This document shows, piece by piece, positions 6,907 through 44,777 of a DNA stretch of 47,975 bases. The DNA lies in contig JAIFWV010000005.1 of NCBI GenBank assembly GCA_019659055.1, positions 1 to 47,975 on the forward strand, in the 5' to 3' direction. Within the stretch, counting starts at the first letter, position 1, and every line of letters begins with the position of its first letter. Under the pieces are notes generated by a model that was not told where the DNA came from, did no database searches, and was given only the letters and a program-made list of their open reading frames with translations. The DNA comes from Candidatus Doudnabacteria bacterium. Lineage in GTDB: Bacteria > Patescibacteriota > Doudnabacteria > UBA920 > O2-02-FULL-48-8. A program made the position numbers and the translations under genes.

Positions 6907-6979
6907 GGGGATCTCTCGCCAAGATCCCCACCTTTCTCGAGAGTTTGAGTCGATCCTGATTCCAACTTTCAAGTTTGGT
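6907..6979 (+). repeat. Conserved double-hairpin cassette spacer R1
   Basis: GGGGATCT/AGATCCCC hairpin + core ACCTTTCTCGAG (6930-6941) ... TTCAAGTTTGGT. Confidence 0.85.
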
Positions 6980-7004
6980 AGCCGTTCTTTACAAGGAGAG
7001 TCAA

Positions 7005-7835
7005 GTGAGAAAGACATTGTCAGTAGTCGCGTTGGTTCTTTGCTCGTCGTACGCCGCTGTCGCGCAGGACAAGATTCGGGTTTCCGCAACTGTCGAGACG
7101 ACCACCTCACAAGTGATCAGCTCCTCAGCCAAGAGCGAGAACGCCGGCATCGAGTTCCTGCCGTCGCGCTGGGTCACTTCCCAGCAGATCATGACGATCA
7201 CGACCGCACCCACTAAGAAGCTCAGCGCGGCTGTTCGGTTCAATCTCGCCGGTTCCGCGGAGAATCCGCCGGTCGACCGGGATCCCAAAACTGGGGTCGA
7301 GTACCGCGTGCAAGATCTGCGATCGTACTCGGGCGAGAACCGCTTGTTCGAGGCCTCGGCCGCTTACAAGGTCTGGCGGCAGGTTTCGGCCGTCGGCGGG
7401 TACACAAGACTGTCGCTTGCCGGCAGGTACGAAAATACCATTCCCTACGGCTACTACGACGGGGGATTGGTGACTACCTACTCCGAGAGACAGACGTACC
7501 GGGGCATCGAGCTCGGCGCACGTTCGGATTTTGCGATTCGCGGCCTTACCCTCGAGCCGGAATTTCTGCTCTACCCGCGTATCAGCCGGAACTTCCGTTC
7601 GCACCAGAACTACCTCGGCCATGTCTACGACAACGACATCGACCAGAACACTGGCCGGCGCGTGGGAATGCAGATGAGCGGACGGGCAAAGTATGCTCTG
7701 GTCCGACACCTCGCGGCGACGTTCTCCTACAACCTCCAGGTCATCCGAACCACGAACAAAGTCATGTTCGGCGGTCCGGCGCGGGAGAGCTTAAAGACTC
7801 GCACCGCCATGGTCGGTCTGCAGGTCGGGTTCTAA
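7005..7835 (+). CDS. Secreted protein with outer-membrane beta-barrel features
   Basis: GTG start after SD AAGGAG; signal peptide; alternating amphipathic strands; C-terminal ...VGLQVGF. Confidence 0.65.
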   Translation: MRKTLSVVALVLCSSYAAVAQDKIRVSATVETTTSQVISSSAKSENAGIEFLPSRWVTSQQIMTITTAPTKKLSAAVRFNLAGSAENPPVDRDPKTGVEYRVQDLRSYSGENRLFEASAAYKVWRQVSAVGGYTRLSLAGRYENTIPYGYYDGGLVTTYSERQTYRGIELGARSDFAIRGLTLEPEFLLYPRISRNFRSHQNYLGHVYDNDIDQNTGRRVGMQMSGRAKYALVRHLAATFSYNLQVIRTTNKVMFGGPARESLKTRTAMVGLQVGF

Positions 7836-7879
7836 ACGCTGCTCAAATCGCATTCGTGCGACACGAGCGCGTGGTTTCC

Positions 7880-7955
7880 GACCAGCCCCAGTTTTATTAA
7901 CTGGAGCTGGTCACCTTTCTTGAGAGTTCCAATCAATGGAACTTTCACGATTGGT
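7880..7955 (+). repeat. Conserved double-hairpin cassette spacer R2
   Basis: GACCAGC..CCAG/CTGG..GCTGGTC hairpin + core ACCTTTCTTGAG (7913-7924) ... ATTGGT. Confidence 0.85.
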
Positions 7956-7966
7956 AGGAGGATCAA

Positions 7967-8401
7967 ATGCTTTTTGAACTTTTTGTAGTTGTGCTCGTCA
8001 TGAACGTGCTCGCTCAATTCGCTGCAACGCGCAGCAATCGGACTGAGCGGATCCTCGGAATCGGTGCTGCGATCACCCTTGCATCTCTGTTGGGCGGGGT
8101 AGCCAATTATATGGACGAATCCAGAAAGAGGAGTGCAATAATCGACCAGCTCGACGCTATGACAAACCAGACCGCAGATGTCGTTGCGGTGGAACCCATT
8201 GCCGCCAAGCACTATGTGCTGCTTCGGCACCGCATCCTCGAGATCGACGGCAAGAAGCTGGATCTGGTGATAGGCAAGTACATGCAAATGCAAACCGACC
8301 AGTCCGAGTGGGTTTACGCCCTTCCGCGCTGGGCGGCGTCCGGGCGGATTGTCGACCACGGTTACCCGTACGAAGCGGGGCCTGCTAAAGACTCGCGTTA
8401 G
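7967..8401 (+). CDS. Hypothetical membrane protein (two N-terminal TM segments)
   Basis: SD AGGAGG; hydrophobic N-terminus, soluble C-terminus. Confidence 0.75.
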   Translation: MLFELFVVVLVMNVLAQFAATRSNRTERILGIGAAITLASLLGGVANYMDESRKRSAIIDQLDAMTNQTADVVAVEPIAAKHYVLLRHRILEIDGKKLDLVIGKYMQMQTDQSEWVYALPRWAASGRIVDHGYPYEAGPAKDSR

Positions 8402-8407
8402 CGCCAA

Positions 8408-8490
8408 GTGGAGGCGAATTTCGAAAGATTTCGCTTCCACACCTTTCTTGAGGTTTCGAGTCAATCACGATTCGAGGACTCAAGATTGGT
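8408..8490 (+). repeat. Conserved double-hairpin cassette spacer R3
   Basis: GTGGAGGCGAA/TTCGCTTCCAC hairpin + core ACCTTTCTTGAG (8441-8452) ... CTCAAGATTGGT. Confidence 0.9.
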
Positions 8491-8505
8491 CCGAAGGAGG
8501 AATAC

Positions 8506-8829
8506 ATGCGGAAGATTCTGTTACTAGTTCTTATCTTTGTTTCGGCCTGCACGGCAGCTTCGGGGCCGGATTTCCGCATCAGGTGGGAAACGCAAGCTTA
8601 CGATGGCCCGTTCAAAGCCGTCGTAACTCAGGTCCAGGAGACTCTCGGGTCGATTGTCGCTGTCAACGTGCTAGTCGATCAATCTGAGCGCCGAAAATTC
8701 CAGCAGTTGGCGGCGATTGGTTCAAACCTGAAGATCGCCGATCACGTCACGTGCAGGGTCGGAACTCTAACTAATGGTATGGCCAATGACGTCGTGACTG
8801 TGTGTGTGGCAGCAACCCCGAAACAATAA
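8506..8829 (+). CDS. Putative lipoprotein
   Basis: SD AAGGAGG; MRKILLLVLIFVSAC lipobox-like signal. Confidence 0.7.
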   Translation: MRKILLLVLIFVSACTAASGPDFRIRWETQAYDGPFKAVVTQVQETLGSIVAVNVLVDQSERRKFQQLAAIGSNLKIADHVTCRVGTLTNGMANDVVTVCVAATPKQ

Positions 8830-8836
8830 GCTGTTC

Positions 8837-8919
8837 GTGGAGGCGAATTTCGAAAGATTTCGCTTCCACACCTTTCTTGAGAGTTTGAGTCAATCCTGAT
8901 TCCAACTTTCAAGTTTGGT
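8837..8919 (+). repeat. Conserved double-hairpin cassette spacer R4
   Basis: First 45 nt identical to R3; core 8870-8881; second hairpin nearly identical to R1. Confidence 0.9.
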
Positions 8920-8959
8920 GGCTGTTCTTTCAAGCGCGAGAAGCGCGATGAGGTGTGTG

Positions 8960-9229
8960 ATGGCTATCATGGGCGATGGGGGTTGGATTGTACCGCCTCG
9001 ATTCCCTTTCCCTGAACTTTCGACCGAATGGACTAAGTCCCCGGAACTACGACGGTTTTCGGTTCCAGAGGGGACCATGTACCAGAGAGATGAGTACGCT
9101 CTCTCGAAATTGCAGGCTGTTCTCCCGGTTGGCGATCGGTTGGTGCGAGATTGGCTCAGCGAAGCGAAGACACGCAGGCTTGTCGATGACCACACTCATT
9201 ATTGTCTGCTTTGGTATGCAGATAAATAA
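8960..9229 (+). CDS. Hypothetical protein (start uncertain: 8948/8960/8969)
   Basis: Open frame between spacers R4 and R5; GAGGTG precedes ATG 8960. Confidence 0.55.
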   Translation: MAIMGDGGWIVPPRFPFPELSTEWTKSPELRRFSVPEGTMYQRDEYALSKLQAVLPVGDRLVRDWLSEAKTRRLVDDHTHYCLLWYADK

Positions 9230-9277
9230 CATTGCTCAAATTGCTCATCAAAGAAGCGAAGCGAGCGTGTAATTCCT

Positions 9278-9355
9278 GACCAGTCCCAGTTTGTTAAACT
9301 GGAGCTGGTCACCTTTCTCGAGTCCCGCACATGGTGTGGGGGATTCAAGATCGGA
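9278..9355 (+). repeat. Conserved double-hairpin cassette spacer R5
   Basis: Hairpin 1 homologous to R2; core ACCTTTCTCGAG (9311-9322) ... TTCAAGATCGGA. Confidence 0.85.
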
Positions 9356-9378
9356 AACAGTATGGGAGGATTGGAAAA

Positions 9379-9741
9379 ATGAAGAAGAACTTCGTAATCG
9401 TGGGGCTGTTCTGTTTGTCGGTTGCCAGCTTGAGCTGGAACTTCAGCCAGTACCAGCACACCGGCATGCTGAAGAACGCCGCCGCGCAGTTGTCTACACT
9501 GACGACGCACTCCGAACGCAGCGAGTTCGCGATCGTCATTCCGTTTGAAGACACGCCGGTACTGATGCGCCGTGCTGATGTCGAGATCAATGGTGTGGTC
9601 GAACATCTCGTATGCGGACGCGAAAAGTATGACGCGAACGCCGACGAGAACCGGCTCTGGTTCGACGACAAGCTCGTGGCCAAGCTGGAAACCCCGATGT
9701 CGCAGTTCGGGCTGTACGAGGGCCACAAGCCCAATCGGTAG
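9379..9741 (+). CDS. Exported/membrane-anchored hypothetical protein
   Basis: SD GGGAGG; MKKNFVIVGLFCLSVASLSW signal-like N-terminus. Confidence 0.75.
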   Translation: MKKNFVIVGLFCLSVASLSWNFSQYQHTGMLKNAAAQLSTLTTHSERSEFAIVIPFEDTPVLMRRADVEINGVVEHLVCGREKYDANADENRLWFDDKLVAKLETPMSQFGLYEGHKPNR

Positions 9742-9748
9742 CAGTACG

Positions 9749-9828
9749 GTGGAGGCGAATTTCTGAAAAGATTTCGCTTCCACCCCTTTCTTGAGAGTTT
9801 CAAATTCCTTGGAACTCCGAAGTTTGGG
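9749..9828 (+). repeat. Conserved double-hairpin cassette spacer R6
   Basis: Hairpin 1 as R3/R4 (+2 nt in loop); core CCCTTTCTTGAG (9784-9795) ... AAGTTTGGG (compensatory ACC/GGT to CCC/GGG). Confidence 0.85.
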
Positions 9829-9853
9829 TGTTAGGTTCAACAGGAGGATGCAG

Positions 9854-10717
9854 ATGGACAGAAAGTTCAAAGCGTTGAGTCCGCGTGCTCGGTGGGCAGT
9901 TCGCATCAGTTCCGGCGCAGTTCTCATGAGCCTGTTGCTCATGGGGATGTGCTCCCGGAAAGAGACGCCCCAGCCGAACGTGCCGAACCCTGCTCCGCAG
10001 GCTCATCACGTCGTCCGGCGCGGCGAGTTCCTCAAGTCGATCGCACCGCAGTACCGCAACGTCAGCTGGGAGTCGATCTTGCTGGCCAACGAGCCGTACC
10101 TCAAGGGGAAATACCTCGAGACGTGCGAACCATTCTCGGCATCGTACACCAACAACAGTCGCAGGCGTGGGCTGTTCTGCAACGACCGGTTCCATCGGCC
10201 GTACGGCAACACCCTCAAACCGGGTTGGACGCTCGCCATTCCGGCCGGCACGGCGCCGCAAGACGTCGAACAGACCGTGAAGGACTACACTGATTCCGGC
10301 GACGACGTCTCGATCGTCATCGACGATTCGGGTTCCATGGCTGAGGACCGCCGCACAGTGGCACAGTTCTATCTGGCGGCGCTTCAGAAACATGGGCGCA
10401 ACATCGAAGCAGTCTATCTCTACGTCGACGGGTCGGTGCGTCGGCTCGAAGTCCCCAAAGACATCGAGTCGGAAATGCACACAAGTGGCAACATCGAGAA
10501 TACCTACGAGGCGCTGCGCACCGCGGCTGGTGACCGCCCGGACAAAATCATCCTCATCACGGATGAACCGGGGGATGACTGGCCGGCGGACTTCGGCGGC
10601 ATGAAACTGCCGCCGGTGATCGCGACTTGCCTGGCCGATCACGGCTATCACGCGTGCGAAAGTACGCTCATGAAAGTCGCGAAAGTGACTCATGGGAAAT
10701 ATGTAGCGTACAGGTAA
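9854..10717 (+). CDS. Membrane-anchored LysM-like + VWA domain protein
   Basis: TM, then HVVRRGEFLKSIA...ILLAN...LKPGWTLAIP (LysM-like, with insertion), then IVIDDSGSM (MIDAS) and IILITDE. Confidence 0.75.
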   Translation: MDRKFKALSPRARWAVRISSGAVLMSLLLMGMCSRKETPQPNVPNPAPQAHHVVRRGEFLKSIAPQYRNVSWESILLANEPYLKGKYLETCEPFSASYTNNSRRRGLFCNDRFHRPYGNTLKPGWTLAIPAGTAPQDVEQTVKDYTDSGDDVSIVIDDSGSMAEDRRTVAQFYLAALQKHGRNIEAVYLYVDGSVRRLEVPKDIESEMHTSGNIENTYEALRTAAGDRPDKIILITDEPGDDWPADFGGMKLPPVIATCLADHGYHACESTLMKVAKVTHGKYVAYR

Positions 10718-10730
10718 AGCTTGTTCATAA

Positions 10731-10922
10731 AGGGGAGTGGGATTATCATTATAGATCTCCTGCTCCTCTCTCTACTCCTGGATCGCCAATGCGATGGTAT
10801 TGGGTTCCAGAAGTAGGGCGCTCGGCACTTTGCAAAAGTACCGGCCGTAAATTTCTGCTGAAATTTCGGCCTACTCGCTCGGACCGTCGTCCTGTGCGGG
10901 TTACTTTTGCCAAGTGCCTCGC
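10731..10922 (+). other. Almost fully base-paired spacer: abutting double hairpin plus three-way junction
   Basis: Hairpins ~10731-10769 and 10770-10818; GGCACTT-T-GCAAAAGTA...TACTTTTGC-C-AAGTGCC enclosing two hairpins. Confidence 0.65.
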
Positions 10923-10954
10923 TAAGAATAAAATTGAAGTTCAAGGAGGAGATT

Positions 10955-11128
10955 GTGGTTGAAAAAACTGTCGAGATCCTGGCCACTCACAAGTTGTTGA
11001 TCATGACGCTTTATGTTGGGATCAGTTCGCTGATCCTGCTCGGCTCAGAACCTCGAAGCCTTGTTCGCAGAGCCACCTACGGCATTGCCGCGGCGGTCTG
11101 CATCGCAATCATCGTTTCCAGAATCTGA
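10955..11128 (+). CDS. Small two-TM hypothetical protein
   Basis: SD AAGGAGGAG, GTG 10955. Confidence 0.65.
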   Translation: MVEKTVEILATHKLLIMTLYVGISSLILLGSEPRSLVRRATYGIAAAVCIAIIVSRI

Positions 11129-12188: not shown

Positions 12189-12650
12189 ATGGGAATTTCT
12201 CTCATGCACCTGACTCCAAACGAGATAGAGATGGCGGCCGAGTTCCAGCTTACCGAAATCTTAGAGAAACATCTCGAGGATTGCGCGCATTGCCGTGCCG
12301 CGCCGGCCGAGTTCCAGCTTACCGAAATCTTAGAGAAACATCTCGAGGATTGCGCGCATTGCCGTGCCGCGCTCAACGATTATGGTCGGCGCCTCCATAG
12401 TATCGACACCAACCCACAGACAGTAGGTTCCAATGGACCCTTGTTCATCTGCCCGCCCAATTGCGGCGGCTGTGGGTTTATCGGTTACGCGCTGGAACTT
12501 GAAAAGTCGCACGACGGCGATCTGCACTGTAAGTGCGGCAAGTATCGGCTTTACCATCTCACAAGGTTTAATTTCGCGTTGTTTTCCGAAGGTCTGGATC
12601 TTCACTCGCTGACCCGCGCGACGGCCATTCTCTGGCCGCGTACCCGTTGA
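12189..12650 (+). CDS. Cys-rich protein with duplicated zf-HC2-like motif
   Basis: HLEDCAHC twice, plus CPPNCGGC and HCKC. Confidence 0.65.
   Translation: MGISLMHLTPNEIEMAAEFQLTEILEKHLEDCAHCRAAPAEFQLTEILEKHLEDCAHCRAALNDYGRRLHSIDTNPQTVGSNGPLFICPPNCGGCGFIGYALELEKSHDGDLHCKCGKYRLYHLTRFNFALFSEGLDLHSLTRATAILWPRTR
12235..12372 (+). repeat. Perfect 69-bp tandem duplication (2 copies)
   Basis: 12235-12303 identical to 12304-12372. Confidence 0.95.
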
Positions 12651-16689: not shown

Positions 16690-17082
16690 GCCATTGCGAG
16701 GAGCTAAATTAGATAACATGAGGCGACGAAGCAATCATTTCCAAGACGAACCGACGTGTTCTATTTATATACTAACTAATTTTACAAATACCACACTATA
16801 CACCGGATTCAGTACGAGACTTAAGCAAAGAATTTGGGAACATAAGCAGAAATTAGTAAAAGGTTTTGCAAGTAAATACAATCTTACAAAGCTTGTATAT
16901 TATGAGGCCGGTGGTGATTATGATTCAACCCTTGCAAGGGAAAAACAAATCAAAGCTGGCTCAAGGACAGATAAGATAAAACTTATCGAAAACCTGAATC
17001 CTAAGTGGAAAGATCTCTATGACGACTTAGATTAGATCGCCACGTCGTCCCGCGAACTGCAAGCGGGACTCCTCGCGATGGC
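16690..17082. mobile_element. REP-flanked GIY-YIG module
   Basis: Arms 16690-16736 (GCCATTGCGAGGAG..CGACGAAGCAATC) and 17034-17082 are mutual inverted repeats. Confidence 0.65.
16718..17035 (+). CDS. GIY-YIG nuclease family protein (start uncertain)
   Basis: IYILTN...LYTG...RIWEHK...KYNLTKLVYYE...AREKQIK...NPKWKDL. Confidence 0.88.
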   Translation: MRRRSNHFQDEPTCSIYILTNFTNTTLYTGFSTRLKQRIWEHKQKLVKGFASKYNLTKLVYYEAGGDYDSTLAREKQIKAGSRTDKIKLIENLNPKWKDLYDDLD

Positions 17083-17230: not shown

Positions 17231-17470
17231 TCAGGGTAAGAGTTTCTTCAGCTCATTATACCCTTTATGTGTTTTGAAATATCTCTCTCTTTTTCTTGCA
17301 TCGGCTTCGATCTCATATGATTCCGTATATATCAGCCTCAAAGGGAGTCGACTTTTTGTAGAGAATACAAGACCTTTGTTATGTTGCTCAACTCTTCTAT
17401 TTAGGTCATTAGTGCTTCCGATGTATCTTTTTCTATCCTTCAAGCTTTGTAATATATACACGTGATACAT
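17231..17470 (-). CDS. GIY-YIG nuclease family protein
   Basis: MYHVYILQS...YIGSTNDLNRRVEQHN...A.KRERYFK. Confidence 0.9.
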   Translation of the reverse strand: MYHVYILQSLKDRKRYIGSTNDLNRRVEQHNKGLVFSTKSRLPLRLIYTESYEIEADARKRERYFKTHKGYNELKKLLP

Positions 17471-42470: not shown

Positions 42471-44777
42471 ATGCAGGGCAAAATGAAACAAGTACTAAGC
42501 CGCGCTTTAGTGAGCTTAATTTTTTTATCCGCAGTAAGCGGAAACTTTCGAGTAAACCAGGCACAAGCCGATGCCGGAGATATTATTTTACACGCATCCG
42601 ACGGCGGATCGAGCAGCATTACGGGGACCAGATTTATTATCAACAGCGATTCCACAGCGGCTGGTGGTTTTGCCATCTCAAATCCAGATTTGGCGGAAAG
42701 TAAAGCCAGCAATGCCTTGGCTGCCCCTACCAATTATGTCGATTTGAACTTCACAGCCGCTGCTGATACTTTTTATCACCTCTGGGTGCGCATGAAAGCC
42801 CAAAATAATTCGTACACCAATGACTCCATTTTTATGCAGTTTTCGGATTCTTTGAACGATGCGGGATTGCCCGATTACCGCATTGGCACCACTGCATCAC
42901 TCATTGGATTTTTGGAGGAGGGAAGTGGAGCCGGGATTTCTGCCTGGGGGTGGAATGACAATAATTATGGTGCCTTAGGGAGCAATATTAAATTTGCGAC
43001 TACAGGTAACCACACTTTGCGCATAGAACAGCGCGAAGACGGAGTTACCATCGACCAGATTGTATTGAGCCCATCGACTTATCTCACCAGAGCTCCGGGT
43101 CTTTTGAAAAGCGATACGACACTGTTGACCGCGACCCAGGGGTCTTCCGCTGGTATCACACCGCCTCCAACGCCGACTCCAACCCCCACGCCTACTCCTC
43201 CGCCTCTGCCCACTCCGACTTCCGGCAATTTCAAAGTTTCCAACTACAACATCCGCTCCGGCGATGGCCGATGCGGAACCTCGGGAGTCTGCCCGTTTAA
43301 TGACGGCGTCCAAAACTGCACGAATGCCTCGCTTCCCATGAACGCTTGGGGTTATGGTATTCCTCAGACCGAACTTAGAAAGCTCAATGACCCGATTAAT
43401 TCCTCGGTTTTGGCACTCGCCCTCGGCGAGGCCTGGGGGTGCGGCAGTCCAACCAACGTCCAGAATGTTTTGGGCTGGAGGTATGCCTCAAGAGACTATA
43501 ACGGCACGGCTCTCGTGGCCCGCTATGGTATTTCTGGAACGCTTGCCGTGACCAATGTTTCTTGGGAAGGCGAAGCCAAATATATCTTGGGAGCGGATGT
43601 CTGCACCGACAGTGCCTGCATGGCTGTCATACGGATTTATGCCGCACATCTCGGGGCCACGGTTGGAGATATCGATACCAAAGTTCAGGTCGAAAAAATG
43701 TTAGCTTGGATAAATACTCAGCCTCATGCCGACAAACACATTATCACTGGCGATTTGAATATTTATGATGCGGAGCCAACTGTTGATTTTGCTTGTGAGA
43801 CTCCCACCGATTCATTGGCGTTGCCGGTATTCCGCAATGCTGGCTACATAGACAGCTGGGCGGCCACTCAAGGCACGGCTCTCGGTATGACTGGAACTCT
43901 CAACAAAAACGGCTGCGGCTCGCCCAATGGCGCGGCTTGGAAGCGGATCGATTATGTCTGGTCCAAAGGTCTCACACCGATGGCGACAAATTTGTTTGGA
44001 GTGGTGCCGGCGGGAGCTTATGCGTCCTCAGACCACAACGGCATCACGGCCGAGTTGTCTTACGTCCCTTCAGCGGTGGTGTTGCCTTTGTCGATCAACC
44101 TGCCAGCAGGCAACCTCGATGGCCTCAAACCCGACGGCGTGACCTTATTCGGCTGGACTTACGACTCAGATAGCTCCTCGGTTTCGAATACAGTGAAAAT
44201 ATTTATAGATCAGTCCGCGAGCTACAATTTCCAGGTCTCATCCCAACCCACGGCTATTCTCCGCAATGACGTCAATACGACCTTTGGCATCACGGGGAAT
44301 CATGGTTTTGAGTTTGTGGTTCCCGCAAATTTCCGCGACGGCCTGCCGCACACGGTCTTTGCCTACGGTATGGATACGACCTACACCACCAAACCTTCGC
44401 CGCTCGGTTTGCGATTTACTTTCACTATCCCGAGCTCTACACCCACTCCGACCCCGACACCTACCCCCACGCCAACCCCACCGCCGGCACCCACCGGCAG
44501 TTGCGTTACCGTGACACCAAGCATCCTCTCGCTTTATTCCGGAGGTCCGAGTTCGAGCTGGAAAGTAACTATCACCGCGCCCTCCACCAGCTGTACCTGG
44601 ATTGCTACCGCTGACCAGCCCTGGATTCTCCTCAATGGTCTCTCAGTAACGCCCGCAAATGGCATGGGTACGGCTGTGCTCAAAGTCGGCACGACCAACA
44701 ACACCACTGGAGTTACCAGAACCGGAACGGTGATCATCAATGGGGTAATGATCAAAATTAAGCAAGAATCTTCCTAA
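42471..44777 (+). CDS. Secreted modular protein: beta-sandwich + EEP (endonuclease/exonuclease/phosphatase) domain + BACON-like domain
   Basis: YNI, TGDLN, RIDYVW, SDH EEP motifs; PT linkers; C-terminal CTWIATADQPWI...RTGTVII. Confidence 0.8.
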   Translation: MQGKMKQVLSRALVSLIFLSAVSGNFRVNQAQADAGDIILHASDGGSSSITGTRFIINSDSTAAGGFAISNPDLAESKASNALAAPTNYVDLNFTAAADTFYHLWVRMKAQNNSYTNDSIFMQFSDSLNDAGLPDYRIGTTASLIGFLEEGSGAGISAWGWNDNNYGALGSNIKFATTGNHTLRIEQREDGVTIDQIVLSPSTYLTRAPGLLKSDTTLLTATQGSSAGITPPPTPTPTPTPTPPPLPTPTSGNFKVSNYNIRSGDGRCGTSGVCPFNDGVQNCTNASLPMNAWGYGIPQTELRKLNDPINSSVLALALGEAWGCGSPTNVQNVLGWRYASRDYNGTALVARYGISGTLAVTNVSWEGEAKYILGADVCTDSACMAVIRIYAAHLGATVGDIDTKVQVEKMLAWINTQPHADKHIITGDLNIYDAEPTVDFACETPTDSLALPVFRNAGYIDSWAATQGTALGMTGTLNKNGCGSPNGAAWKRIDYVWSKGLTPMATNLFGVVPAGAYASSDHNGITAELSYVPSAVVLPLSINLPAGNLDGLKPDGVTLFGWTYDSDSSSVSNTVKIFIDQSASYNFQVSSQPTAILRNDVNTTFGITGNHGFEFVVPANFRDGLPHTVFAYGMDTTYTTKPSPLGLRFTFTIPSSTPTPTPTPTPTPTPPPAPTGSCVTVTPSILSLYSGGPSSSWKVTITAPSTSCTWIATADQPWILLNGLSVTPANGMGTAVLKVGTTNNTTGVTRTGTVIINGVMIKIKQESS

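Follow-up and report, generated by a model that had tools for sequence, protein, structure and literature searches.

What is the structured sequence that fills the space between a gene and the small ORF downstream of it on a contig of Candidatus Doudnabacteria, and to which of its neighbours does it belong? The stretch of DNA that we analysed, called the window throughout, is 47,975 nt long. An earlier note, made from its sequence alone, had placed a candidate three-way-junction RNA at positions 10818-10922 and had read it as a riboswitch-like leader or a small RNA cassette. Our analysis shows that the locus carries a copy of a non-coding interspersed repeat, about 107 nt long, that is conserved in structure and specific to its lineage; it belongs to one family of Candidatus Doudnabacteria.

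The window copy and its fold

Structure extends over the whole 238-nt gap that separates the 308-aa gene (9791-10717) from the GTG at 10955, and Table 1 collects its features. The helices lie where the earlier note had drawn them, with a closing helix of 17 positions interrupted by a single T/C mismatch, and the fold is real: the RNA of 10818-10922 reaches -53.4 kcal/mol, compared with -28.3 +/- 3.1 kcal/mol for 200 shuffled sequences (z -8.2), none of which folded as well. The location given in that note was also right, whereas its end was one base short, the true unit being bounded by the motifs CGCTCGG and CCTCGCT. The opposite strand folds as stably (-54.5, z -7.9), and the copy also folds well as single-stranded DNA (-32.8, z -7.8), as expected because the two arms are near-perfect inverted repeats.

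Table 1. Coordinates of the repeat copy, its parts and the neighbouring features in the window (G000 is the window's own genome; C numbers denote its contigs; CM, covariance model; SD, Shine-Dalgarno sequence).
Feature	Position	Strand	Remarks
Upstream gene, 308 aa, weak LysM match	9791-10717	+	Transcript would run into the repeat
Double-hairpin spacer of the array, a separate element	10731-10816	+	1 nt separates it from the repeat
Full copy of the ~107-nt three-way-junction interspersed repeat	10818-10923	+	CM R1, 118.6 bits; 98% identity to G000:C10:8516-8618
5' terminal motif CGCTCGG	10819-10825	+	Near-invariant in 12 own copies and ~100 from relatives
Closing helix, 5' arm GGCACTTTGCAAAAGTA	10824-10840	+	A-tract GCAAAAGTA inside at 10832-10840
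Hairpin P2: GGCCG clamp, AT stem, CUGCUG loop region	10843-10871	+	GGCCG(T)AAATTTC/GAAATTTCGGCC
Hairpin P3: CGC-UC-GGAC ... GUCC-UGU-GCG	10873-10901	+	Contains the GGAC/GTCC hairpin
Closing helix, 3' arm TACTTTTGCCAAGTGCC	10902-10918	+	U-rich tract TACTTTTGC inside at 10902-10910
3' terminal motif CCTCGCT	10917-10923	+	Conserved among copies
Promoter-like composite TTGCCA-16-TAAAAT	10907-10934	+	10/12 matches vs 0.3 expected in shuffles
Downstream 57-aa ORF, without family match	10955-11128	+	GTG start; SD AAGGAGG at 10943-10949

Within the 5' terminal motif, an invariant unpaired UC is flanked by GC and GG pairs. The GCUCGG...CCU..GC module that the repeat's own ends form recurs in P3, and 10-11 of the 12 pairs of P2 carry double changes in relatives. 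After P3 the family consensus reads GGYUARUUUU, with 5-6 U in 8 positions, and the window copy reads (GG)UUACUUUUGC.

The surroundings of this copy indicate how it came to its place. Between 4.2 and 13 kb, the window carries an array of small, co-oriented ORFan genes separated by double-hairpin spacers. Elsewhere in the array the spacers are without the repeat, and in them the second hairpin is followed by an SD and a start codon within about 20 nt. Here the 106 nt of the repeat are wedged between a double hairpin and an SD, in the order that the earlier note had described; removing them would restore a normal array spacer, and the repeat is an extra insert at this site. Because of this, and because of the 98% identical twin on contig C10, which lies in an unrelated context and in the opposite orientation, we infer that the window copy is a recent arrival. 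Other spacer elements, repeated between small co-oriented genes at 6925-9800 with the core CACCTTTCTTGAGAG (families D2-D4 and D6), are a family separate from the three-way-junction repeat. The window further contains a perfect 69-nt tandem duplication (2 x 23 codons; 12235-12372) inside the ORF at 12189-12650, and Pro/Thr-rich low-complexity repeats with an ACnCCnAC periodicity at 43158-43225 and 44427-44494, which are probably the linker regions of two paralogous secreted proteins.

The promoter-like composite takes its -35 element from the 3' arm of the repeat and its -10 element from the flank. As a -10-like hexamer occurs at the matching spacing in only about 4 of 30 comparable copies, a built-in promoter was rejected as a function of the family. 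The sigma-70-like promoter that the 3' arm would happen to create in the window is incidental, a local by-product and not a family feature.

Distribution, covariation and spread of the family

The own genome (900 kb in 39 contigs) contains 11-13 copies according to BLAST and the covariance model R1, which was built on 12 copies (alignment A1) and whose E-values are rough; all of them are bounded by CGCTCGG...CCTCGCT. Among 25 Candidatus Doudnabacteria genomes of the same family, R1 detected 1-18 copies in 21, representing 17 of 19 genera, and the three genomes of the window's genus possess 13, 4 and 0 copies; these genomes are draft MAGs in which repeats may be under-assembled. Across the order (121 genomes), the repeat was found in 18 of 24 genomes of the family f1 under stricter filters, in one of two of f5, and in none of the 94 genomes of f2, f3, f4 and f6. 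Within the order it is thus confined to one family and a single genus of another. Searching 185,579 species genomes for an exact 33-nt degenerate pattern yielded 24 stretches, of which 22 belong to genomes named Candidatus Doudnabacteria; of the remaining two, one is a record named 'Harrisonbacteria' and one a match in Acidimicrobiia that is probably due to chance. The same pattern gave 19 stretches in metagenome contigs and no matches in the viral contigs searched, and phage carriage was rejected on the latter result. The repeat is richer in G+C than the genome (0.55 vs 0.47).

The family is apparently undescribed, as it has no Rfam family and a literature search found no paper describing repeats or MITEs in Doudnabacteria or CPR, although small structured interspersed repeats of bacteria are a kind already known. 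The view of the earlier note that the structure is not a known family agrees with this: Rfam 15 at gathering thresholds recognised only four tRNAs in the window, and relaxing the search to E-values up to 10 added only chance matches of 14-20 bits, with no ribozyme or sRNA. The note had further proposed a search for homologues with compensatory changes, and these proved abundant. RNAalifold recovered the three-way junction from the 12 own copies, with double changes in 17 of 39 pairs. In alignment A2 (51 copies from 21 genomes), 95.9% of the pair cells hold standard pairs and 35 of 39 pairs are changed on both sides; none of 500 shuffles reached the observed level, and slid partners gave 31-48%. 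In alignment A3, comprising 57 further copies, 96.1% of the pair cells are paired and 35 of 39 pairs show double changes. A2 and A3 were fitted to the model and their copies are related, which makes these pairing figures generous; the covariation signal is nevertheless far beyond the controls.

The pairing is essentially strict Watson-Crick, and neither strand is favoured. G-U pairs are rare, at about 1%, with 18 among the 1989 pair cells of A2 and about 26 among the 2189 of A3, 13 of the latter in one column. A-C mismatches, the equivalent of G-U on the other strand, number 51, of which up to 32 possibly come from two doubtful or junction columns, so that the comparison of 18 with 51 was discarded as a strand test. 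Such a pattern fits a palindrome acting at the DNA level as well as it fits an RNA.

Polarity is fixed in one part of the molecule. In the middle of the closing helix, 4-5 consecutive A-U pairs have their A in the 5' arm and their U in the 3' arm; this holds for at least 49 of 51 copies in A2 and at least 51 of 57 in A3 (for example, AU in 49/51 and 56/57), whereas the pairs neighbouring this block flip freely. The conserved unpaired positions are the UC/UC mismatch within the terminal GC-UC-GG/CC-UC-GC module and the junction strands. The loops CUGCUG and CCGUCG are conserved in most members, and distant members swap in longer hairpins.

The family combines old and young copies. Clustering of flanking proteins identified loci shared across genera: one after fusA in four genomes (G000, G015, G017 and G020), the tRNA-Met spacer region in five, and a position after a third gene in three. 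Most of the remaining loci occur in a single genome. The orthologous fusA copies are 65-76% identical to each other, and the fusA copy of G000 is 88% identical to the window copy; mean copy identity is 0.80 within G000 and 0.86 within G011, compared with 0.61 between genomes. A few cross-genus pairs of copies reach 0.90-0.94, whereas coding DNA between these genomes is only 64-76% identical. The family has thus been retained over the long term, and it is also still spreading or being homogenised within genomes. The hisS-comEC junction contains a copy in G000 and no R1 match in G002; between genomes of the same genus no base-precise empty site could be defined, the flanks being only 64-76% identical. 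Two mini-hairpins of G000 consist of the repeat's ends only, CGCTCGGCAC-GTCC-GTGCCTCGCT at C8:6649 (-) and CGCTCGGCA-CTGT-TGCCTCGCT at C21:8717 (-), with a TAA 2 nt ahead of the latter; such mini-hairpins may derive from deletions or be footprints of excision.

Placement at gene ends and the alternatives it bears on

Neighbours of 109 copies were called with our own heuristics, with tRNAs taken from ARAGORN and, after them, the longest ORFs of 60 aa or more that did not overlap. The copies occupy the spaces between genes and are mostly in sense. The upstream neighbour lies on the strand of the repeat in 77 of the 109 copies, and in 57 of these 77 its stop codon or tRNA end is at most 5 nt from the first base of the repeat. 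For protein genes the distance is mostly -3 to +2, and the stop codon sometimes overlaps the first bases of the repeat, as in TAGCTCGG and TAACTCGG; after tRNAs (Pro, Phe, Thr and, in G014, Met) it is a constant 4-5 nt. Gene ends facing the 3' end of the repeat behave differently, with only 6 of 40 within 5 nt (Fisher p ~1e-9), and between co-directional genes 55 copies are sense and 19 antisense (p ~3e-5). These tests treat related copies as independent, which overstates their independence; the asymmetry is still large. Of the 109 copies, 40 have a downstream gene on the opposite strand, 23 are wedged between co-directional genes with the next start at most 35 nt away, and at least 7 sense copies have a canonical terminator, a hairpin plus a T-run, 20-65 nt behind them.

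In G000 the upstream genes include hisS, thioredoxin, fusA, a GH8 hydrolase, and tRNA-Pro(GGG), -Phe, -Pro(CGG) and -Thr(GGT), and one antisense copy lies between two tRNA-Met genes. The downstream genes (comEC, ORFans, tRNA-Gly, a GIY-YIG gene, or a convergent gene) are unrelated to each other.

Several tRNA loci show rearrangements of their own. A further three copies stand behind a tRNA 3' end that a different insert has duplicated: at L129 (G011), L144 (G014) and L136 (G008), in the region about 150-300 nt upstream, an insert of 150-180 nt that contains the tRNA 3' end once more separates a tRNA-Thr or tRNA-Pro from the repeat, and the repeat still stands 3-5 nt after the duplicated CCA tail. 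The insert looks like a different, tRNA-targeting element that landed later. The spacer between two tRNA-Met genes holds the repeat in antisense in five genomes (G000:C12:67824-68109, L025, L064, L067 and L052) and in sense in G014 and G008 (L146 and L137), with mirrored spacer lengths of 5/17 and 20/7 nt, which suggests an inversion in place. G000 also carries 11 small stand-alone GIY-YIG genes of 82-125 aa, at least five of them immediately preceding a tRNA gene on the same strand (Glu, Pro-CGG, Phe, Pro-TGG and Trp); the loci include 17261-17470 (-) and 16760-16972 (+) of the window, C8:5440-5652, C35:8517-8723, C35:18389-18601 and C15:1798-1998. A link between these nucleases and the repeat was considered and rejected: three paralogues lie near copies, but their association is with tRNA genes.

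The placement data bear directly on the two readings in the earlier note. A riboswitch or other cis-regulatory leader of the downstream gene would suit the window, where a stable, covarying fold lies 32 nt upstream of an SD-led ORF. The repeat is, however, dispersed, its position is coupled to the end of the upstream gene, no Rfam family matches it, and the junction is almost fully paired, with no evident ligand pocket or alternative expression-platform fold. As the genes that flank it are unrelated, or lie downstream on the other strand, it is excluded as the leader of any particular gene, and we give the riboswitch reading next to no chance. The second suggestion, a small RNA cassette, comes closer, although an independent cassette would need a promoter: since copies 0-5 nt behind gene ends leave no space for one, the repeat must, judging from its position, be transcribed as the 3' trailer of the upstream gene.

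A resemblance to attC, the single-strand recombination site of gene-cassette systems, is also apparent in the length of about 105 nt, the conserved ends, a stem that varies while always remaining paired, a start that touches or overlaps the stop codon of the ORF before it, and the position of the window copy within a co-oriented ORFan array. The ends CGCTCGG/CCTCGCT, however, do not match the RYYYAAC/GTTRRRY cores, copies are solitary and stand behind housekeeping genes or tRNAs at orthologous loci, the array's own spacers are a different element, and each of five genomes examined has one Xer-like tyrosine recombinase or none detected. We regard an attC-like site as extremely improbable, and even taken together with the riboswitch it retains a very small share of the probability.

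An enzyme that could mobilise the repeat was sought in several ways. The flanks of the 109 copies showed no target-site duplication (e.g. TA) and no shared or conserved target, and the own genome contained no longer element or autonomous parent with the ends of the repeat. Its single Y1_Tnp (IS200/RAYT-like) gene, which encodes 139 aa at C28:5223-5540 (-) between ruvA and a femAB-like gene, has no repeat copies alongside. Across 25 genomes, Y1_Tnp is absent from four with 4-18 copies each (G014 with 18, G022 with 15, G002 and G009) and is strongest in the copy-free G005 and G006. A Y1/HUH (RAYT/IS200) transposase was therefore rejected as mobiliser, being neither flanked by copies nor co-occurring with them in the 25 genomes. 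In the five element-rich genomes no DDE_3 (IS630-type) or DDE_Tnp_1 (IS4-type) domain was found, rve was present in only one or two, and the Phage_integrase domain was represented by one Xer-like tyrosine recombinase in four of the five and was not detected in G008; apart from this Xer-like enzyme, none of these transposases or recombinases is common to the element-rich genomes.

Established classes of mobile repeats were compared on similar grounds. PATEs derived from IS200/IS605 lack terminal inverted repeats and have subterminal hairpins, together with a conserved target tetranucleotide on their 5' side and a TnpA, whereas the ends of the present repeat form one closing helix, its 5' flank is not conserved and Y1_Tnp does not co-occur with it. 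MITEs of the Correia, RUP or ERIC type share its terminal inverted repeats, size and dispersal; neither a target-site duplication nor a cognate transposase or parent IS was found. A REP/BIME with its RAYT was discarded in view of the branched 107-nt unit and of a Y1_Tnp gene that is not flanked by copies and does not track them.

How far a selfish origin alone could account for the repeat is the more difficult question. As a purely selfish, non-autonomous MITE- or REP-like element, it would have no role as RNA, its fold would be relevant only in single-stranded DNA or a cruciform during movement, and it would lie at gene ends because a packed genome tolerates insertions there. Such an element would be expected to display terminal inverted repeats like the near-perfect 17-bp ones seen here, with their conserved 7-nt ends, as well as the strict pairing that lets both strands and single-stranded DNA fold equally. 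The same reading accommodates the variation in copy number between genomes (0-18) and within one genus, the 98% identical copies at unrelated loci, the greater likeness of paralogues in one genome than of orthologous copies, the hisS-comEC junction that is filled in one genome and without a model match in another, and the truncated mini-hairpins. Tolerance alone, however, does not explain why the 5' end and not the 3' end abuts gene ends, nor does it explain the fixed A/U polarity or the cross-genus retention of orthologous copies in deletion-prone genomes of 0.5-1 Mb, and the search for a target duplication, a parent element, a Y1 (HUH) enzyme that follows the copies, or a shared DDE or rve transposase was negative as described. 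We consider this reading possible, though on balance unlikely.

A functional RNA released from the trailer is the other possibility of some weight. It would be a stable small RNA or protein-binding module cut from mRNA 3' ends and tRNA spacers by RNase III acting on the ~20-bp helix, by another RNase, or by self-cleavage at the 5' end, and the upstream RNA would owe its 3' end to this cut. The spacing of 0-5 nt from the upstream gene end, constant after tRNAs, agrees with it, as do the copies with a tRNA on either side, which RNase P and 3' processing must free, the separate canonical terminators after some copies, from which it follows that the whole element is transcribed there, and the conservation of unpaired nucleotides at the ends, junction and loops over genus-level divergence. 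It is weakened by the lack of any Rfam ribozyme or sRNA match even at E-values up to 10, by the replacement of loops in distant members, by the avoidance of G-U, which is unusual for a functional RNA, and by the 19 antisense copies, and it seems to us quite unlikely. A stronger variant, in which a dedicated gene-end module undergoes self-cleavage or a specific nuclease cut exactly at the CGCUCGG 5' boundary, makes both mRNA and tRNA 3' ends and is copied without a transposase, is in our view a long shot; if true, cleavage at this boundary would explain the 0-5-nt abutment, the conserved unpaired nucleotides and the retention in deletion-prone genomes.

A working model and its relation to known systems

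The reading that we prefer, and to which we assign roughly an even chance, is that the repeat is of selfish origin and now acts as a gene-end RNA structure; the 19 antisense copies between co-directional genes count against it as well. According to this model, the RNA would fold into a clamped three-way junction, with two G+C-clamped hairpins held between the A-tract and the U-tract. The core of A-tract, two hairpins and U-tract (GGYUARUUUU) would resemble a branched, bidirectional terminator, and the closed junction may block 3' exonucleases, forming a gene-end cap that would be leaky where the next gene starts within 10-30 nt. A core of this kind, terminating or blocking exonucleases, fits the A/U polarity, the sense bias and the gene-end position. 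A further step at the DNA level is suggested by the scarcity of G-U pairs and by the conserved ends: the family would spread, or be homogenised, within genomes through a process that requires paired arms and conserved ends, for which hairpin-templated correction or some enzyme are candidates.

Termination in the strict sense meets several difficulties. A consensus terminator scan of the repeat called nothing, its stem being bulged or branched; the U-tract, which is part of the closing helix, is not continuous (UACUUUU); and the covarying outer half of this helix and the conserved ends lie beyond the U-tract, where a terminator leaves them unexplained. A strong terminator would be harmful at the 23 wedged copies, and the canonical terminators after at least 7 copies argue against efficient termination by the repeat. 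At such wedged or terminator-followed sites a processing or stabilising role is equally plausible, and the closing helix of about 20 bp is, by analogy, a potential substrate of RNase III.

The host lineage lends these alternatives their interest. CPR/Patescibacteria have some of the most streamlined genomes known and very few mobile elements, yet up to 18 copies are kept. Either a selfish repeat spreads there without a recognisable transposase, or a shared structured module finishes or protects transcripts; both would be useful to know for uncultivated bacteria in which the formation of transcript 3' ends is barely known. The covariance model also prevents copies from being misread as riboswitches or sRNA genes, and it flags a possible hazard for assembly and annotation.

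Among known systems, REP/BIME elements are likewise extragenic palindromes, often located after gene ends, with stems that covary between families and no target duplication, and they stabilise upstream mRNA. REPs are single hairpins of 20-40 nt with a conserved GTAG head that flank their RAYT gene, whereas the Doudnabacteria unit has 107 nt and is branched, and copies do not flank the sole Y1_Tnp gene of G000. ERIC, RUP, BOX and other MITE-like repeats are comparably small, structured, transcribed and intergenic, with copy numbers varying among relatives (PMC3184786, PMC2229807, PMC10969869). The present repeat differs from them in having neither a TA duplication nor an IS630-type partner, and in its host, an ultra-small CPR genome with almost no transposases.

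The Correia elements of Neisseria (CREE/NEMIS) are intergenic repeats of 100-155 bp with terminal inverted repeats that form long hairpins when transcribed; they can make promoters at their ends, and RNase III binds or cuts them, altering mRNA stability (PMC2649163). The composite -35/-10 of the window copy and its ~20-bp helix recall these properties. There is, however, no sequence relation, and CREE have an IHF site and a duplicated TA target, whereas no duplication is seen here. We know of no orientation-specific abutment of CREE to gene ends.

The SPRITE repeats of pneumococci have inverted AAAA...TTTT ends on either side of a long duplex, with a U-rich tract behind it; they are enriched near CDS 3' ends, have no known target duplication or transposase, and have been proposed to be co-opted as terminators (PMC3049150). 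Both families are non-coding, about 100 nt long, present in tens of copies, lineage-restricted and located near CDS 3' ends; both show the AAAA/TTTT bracket and the U-rich tract, and neither has a target duplication or an identified transposase. They share no sequence similarity. SPRITE is A+T-rich and a single duplex from one species pair, whereas the Doudnabacteria repeat is G+C-richer than its genome, forms a three-way junction and occurs in at least 17 genera, with A/U tracts internal to a longer covarying helix that ends in CGCTCGG/CCTCGCT, and with stop codons or tRNA ends 0-5 nt away. What sets the repeat apart among small structured repeats is its branched fold, an abutment to stop codons and tRNA ends that is strictly confined to its 5' side, the apparent absence of a transposase, and its persistence in sub-megabase genomes.
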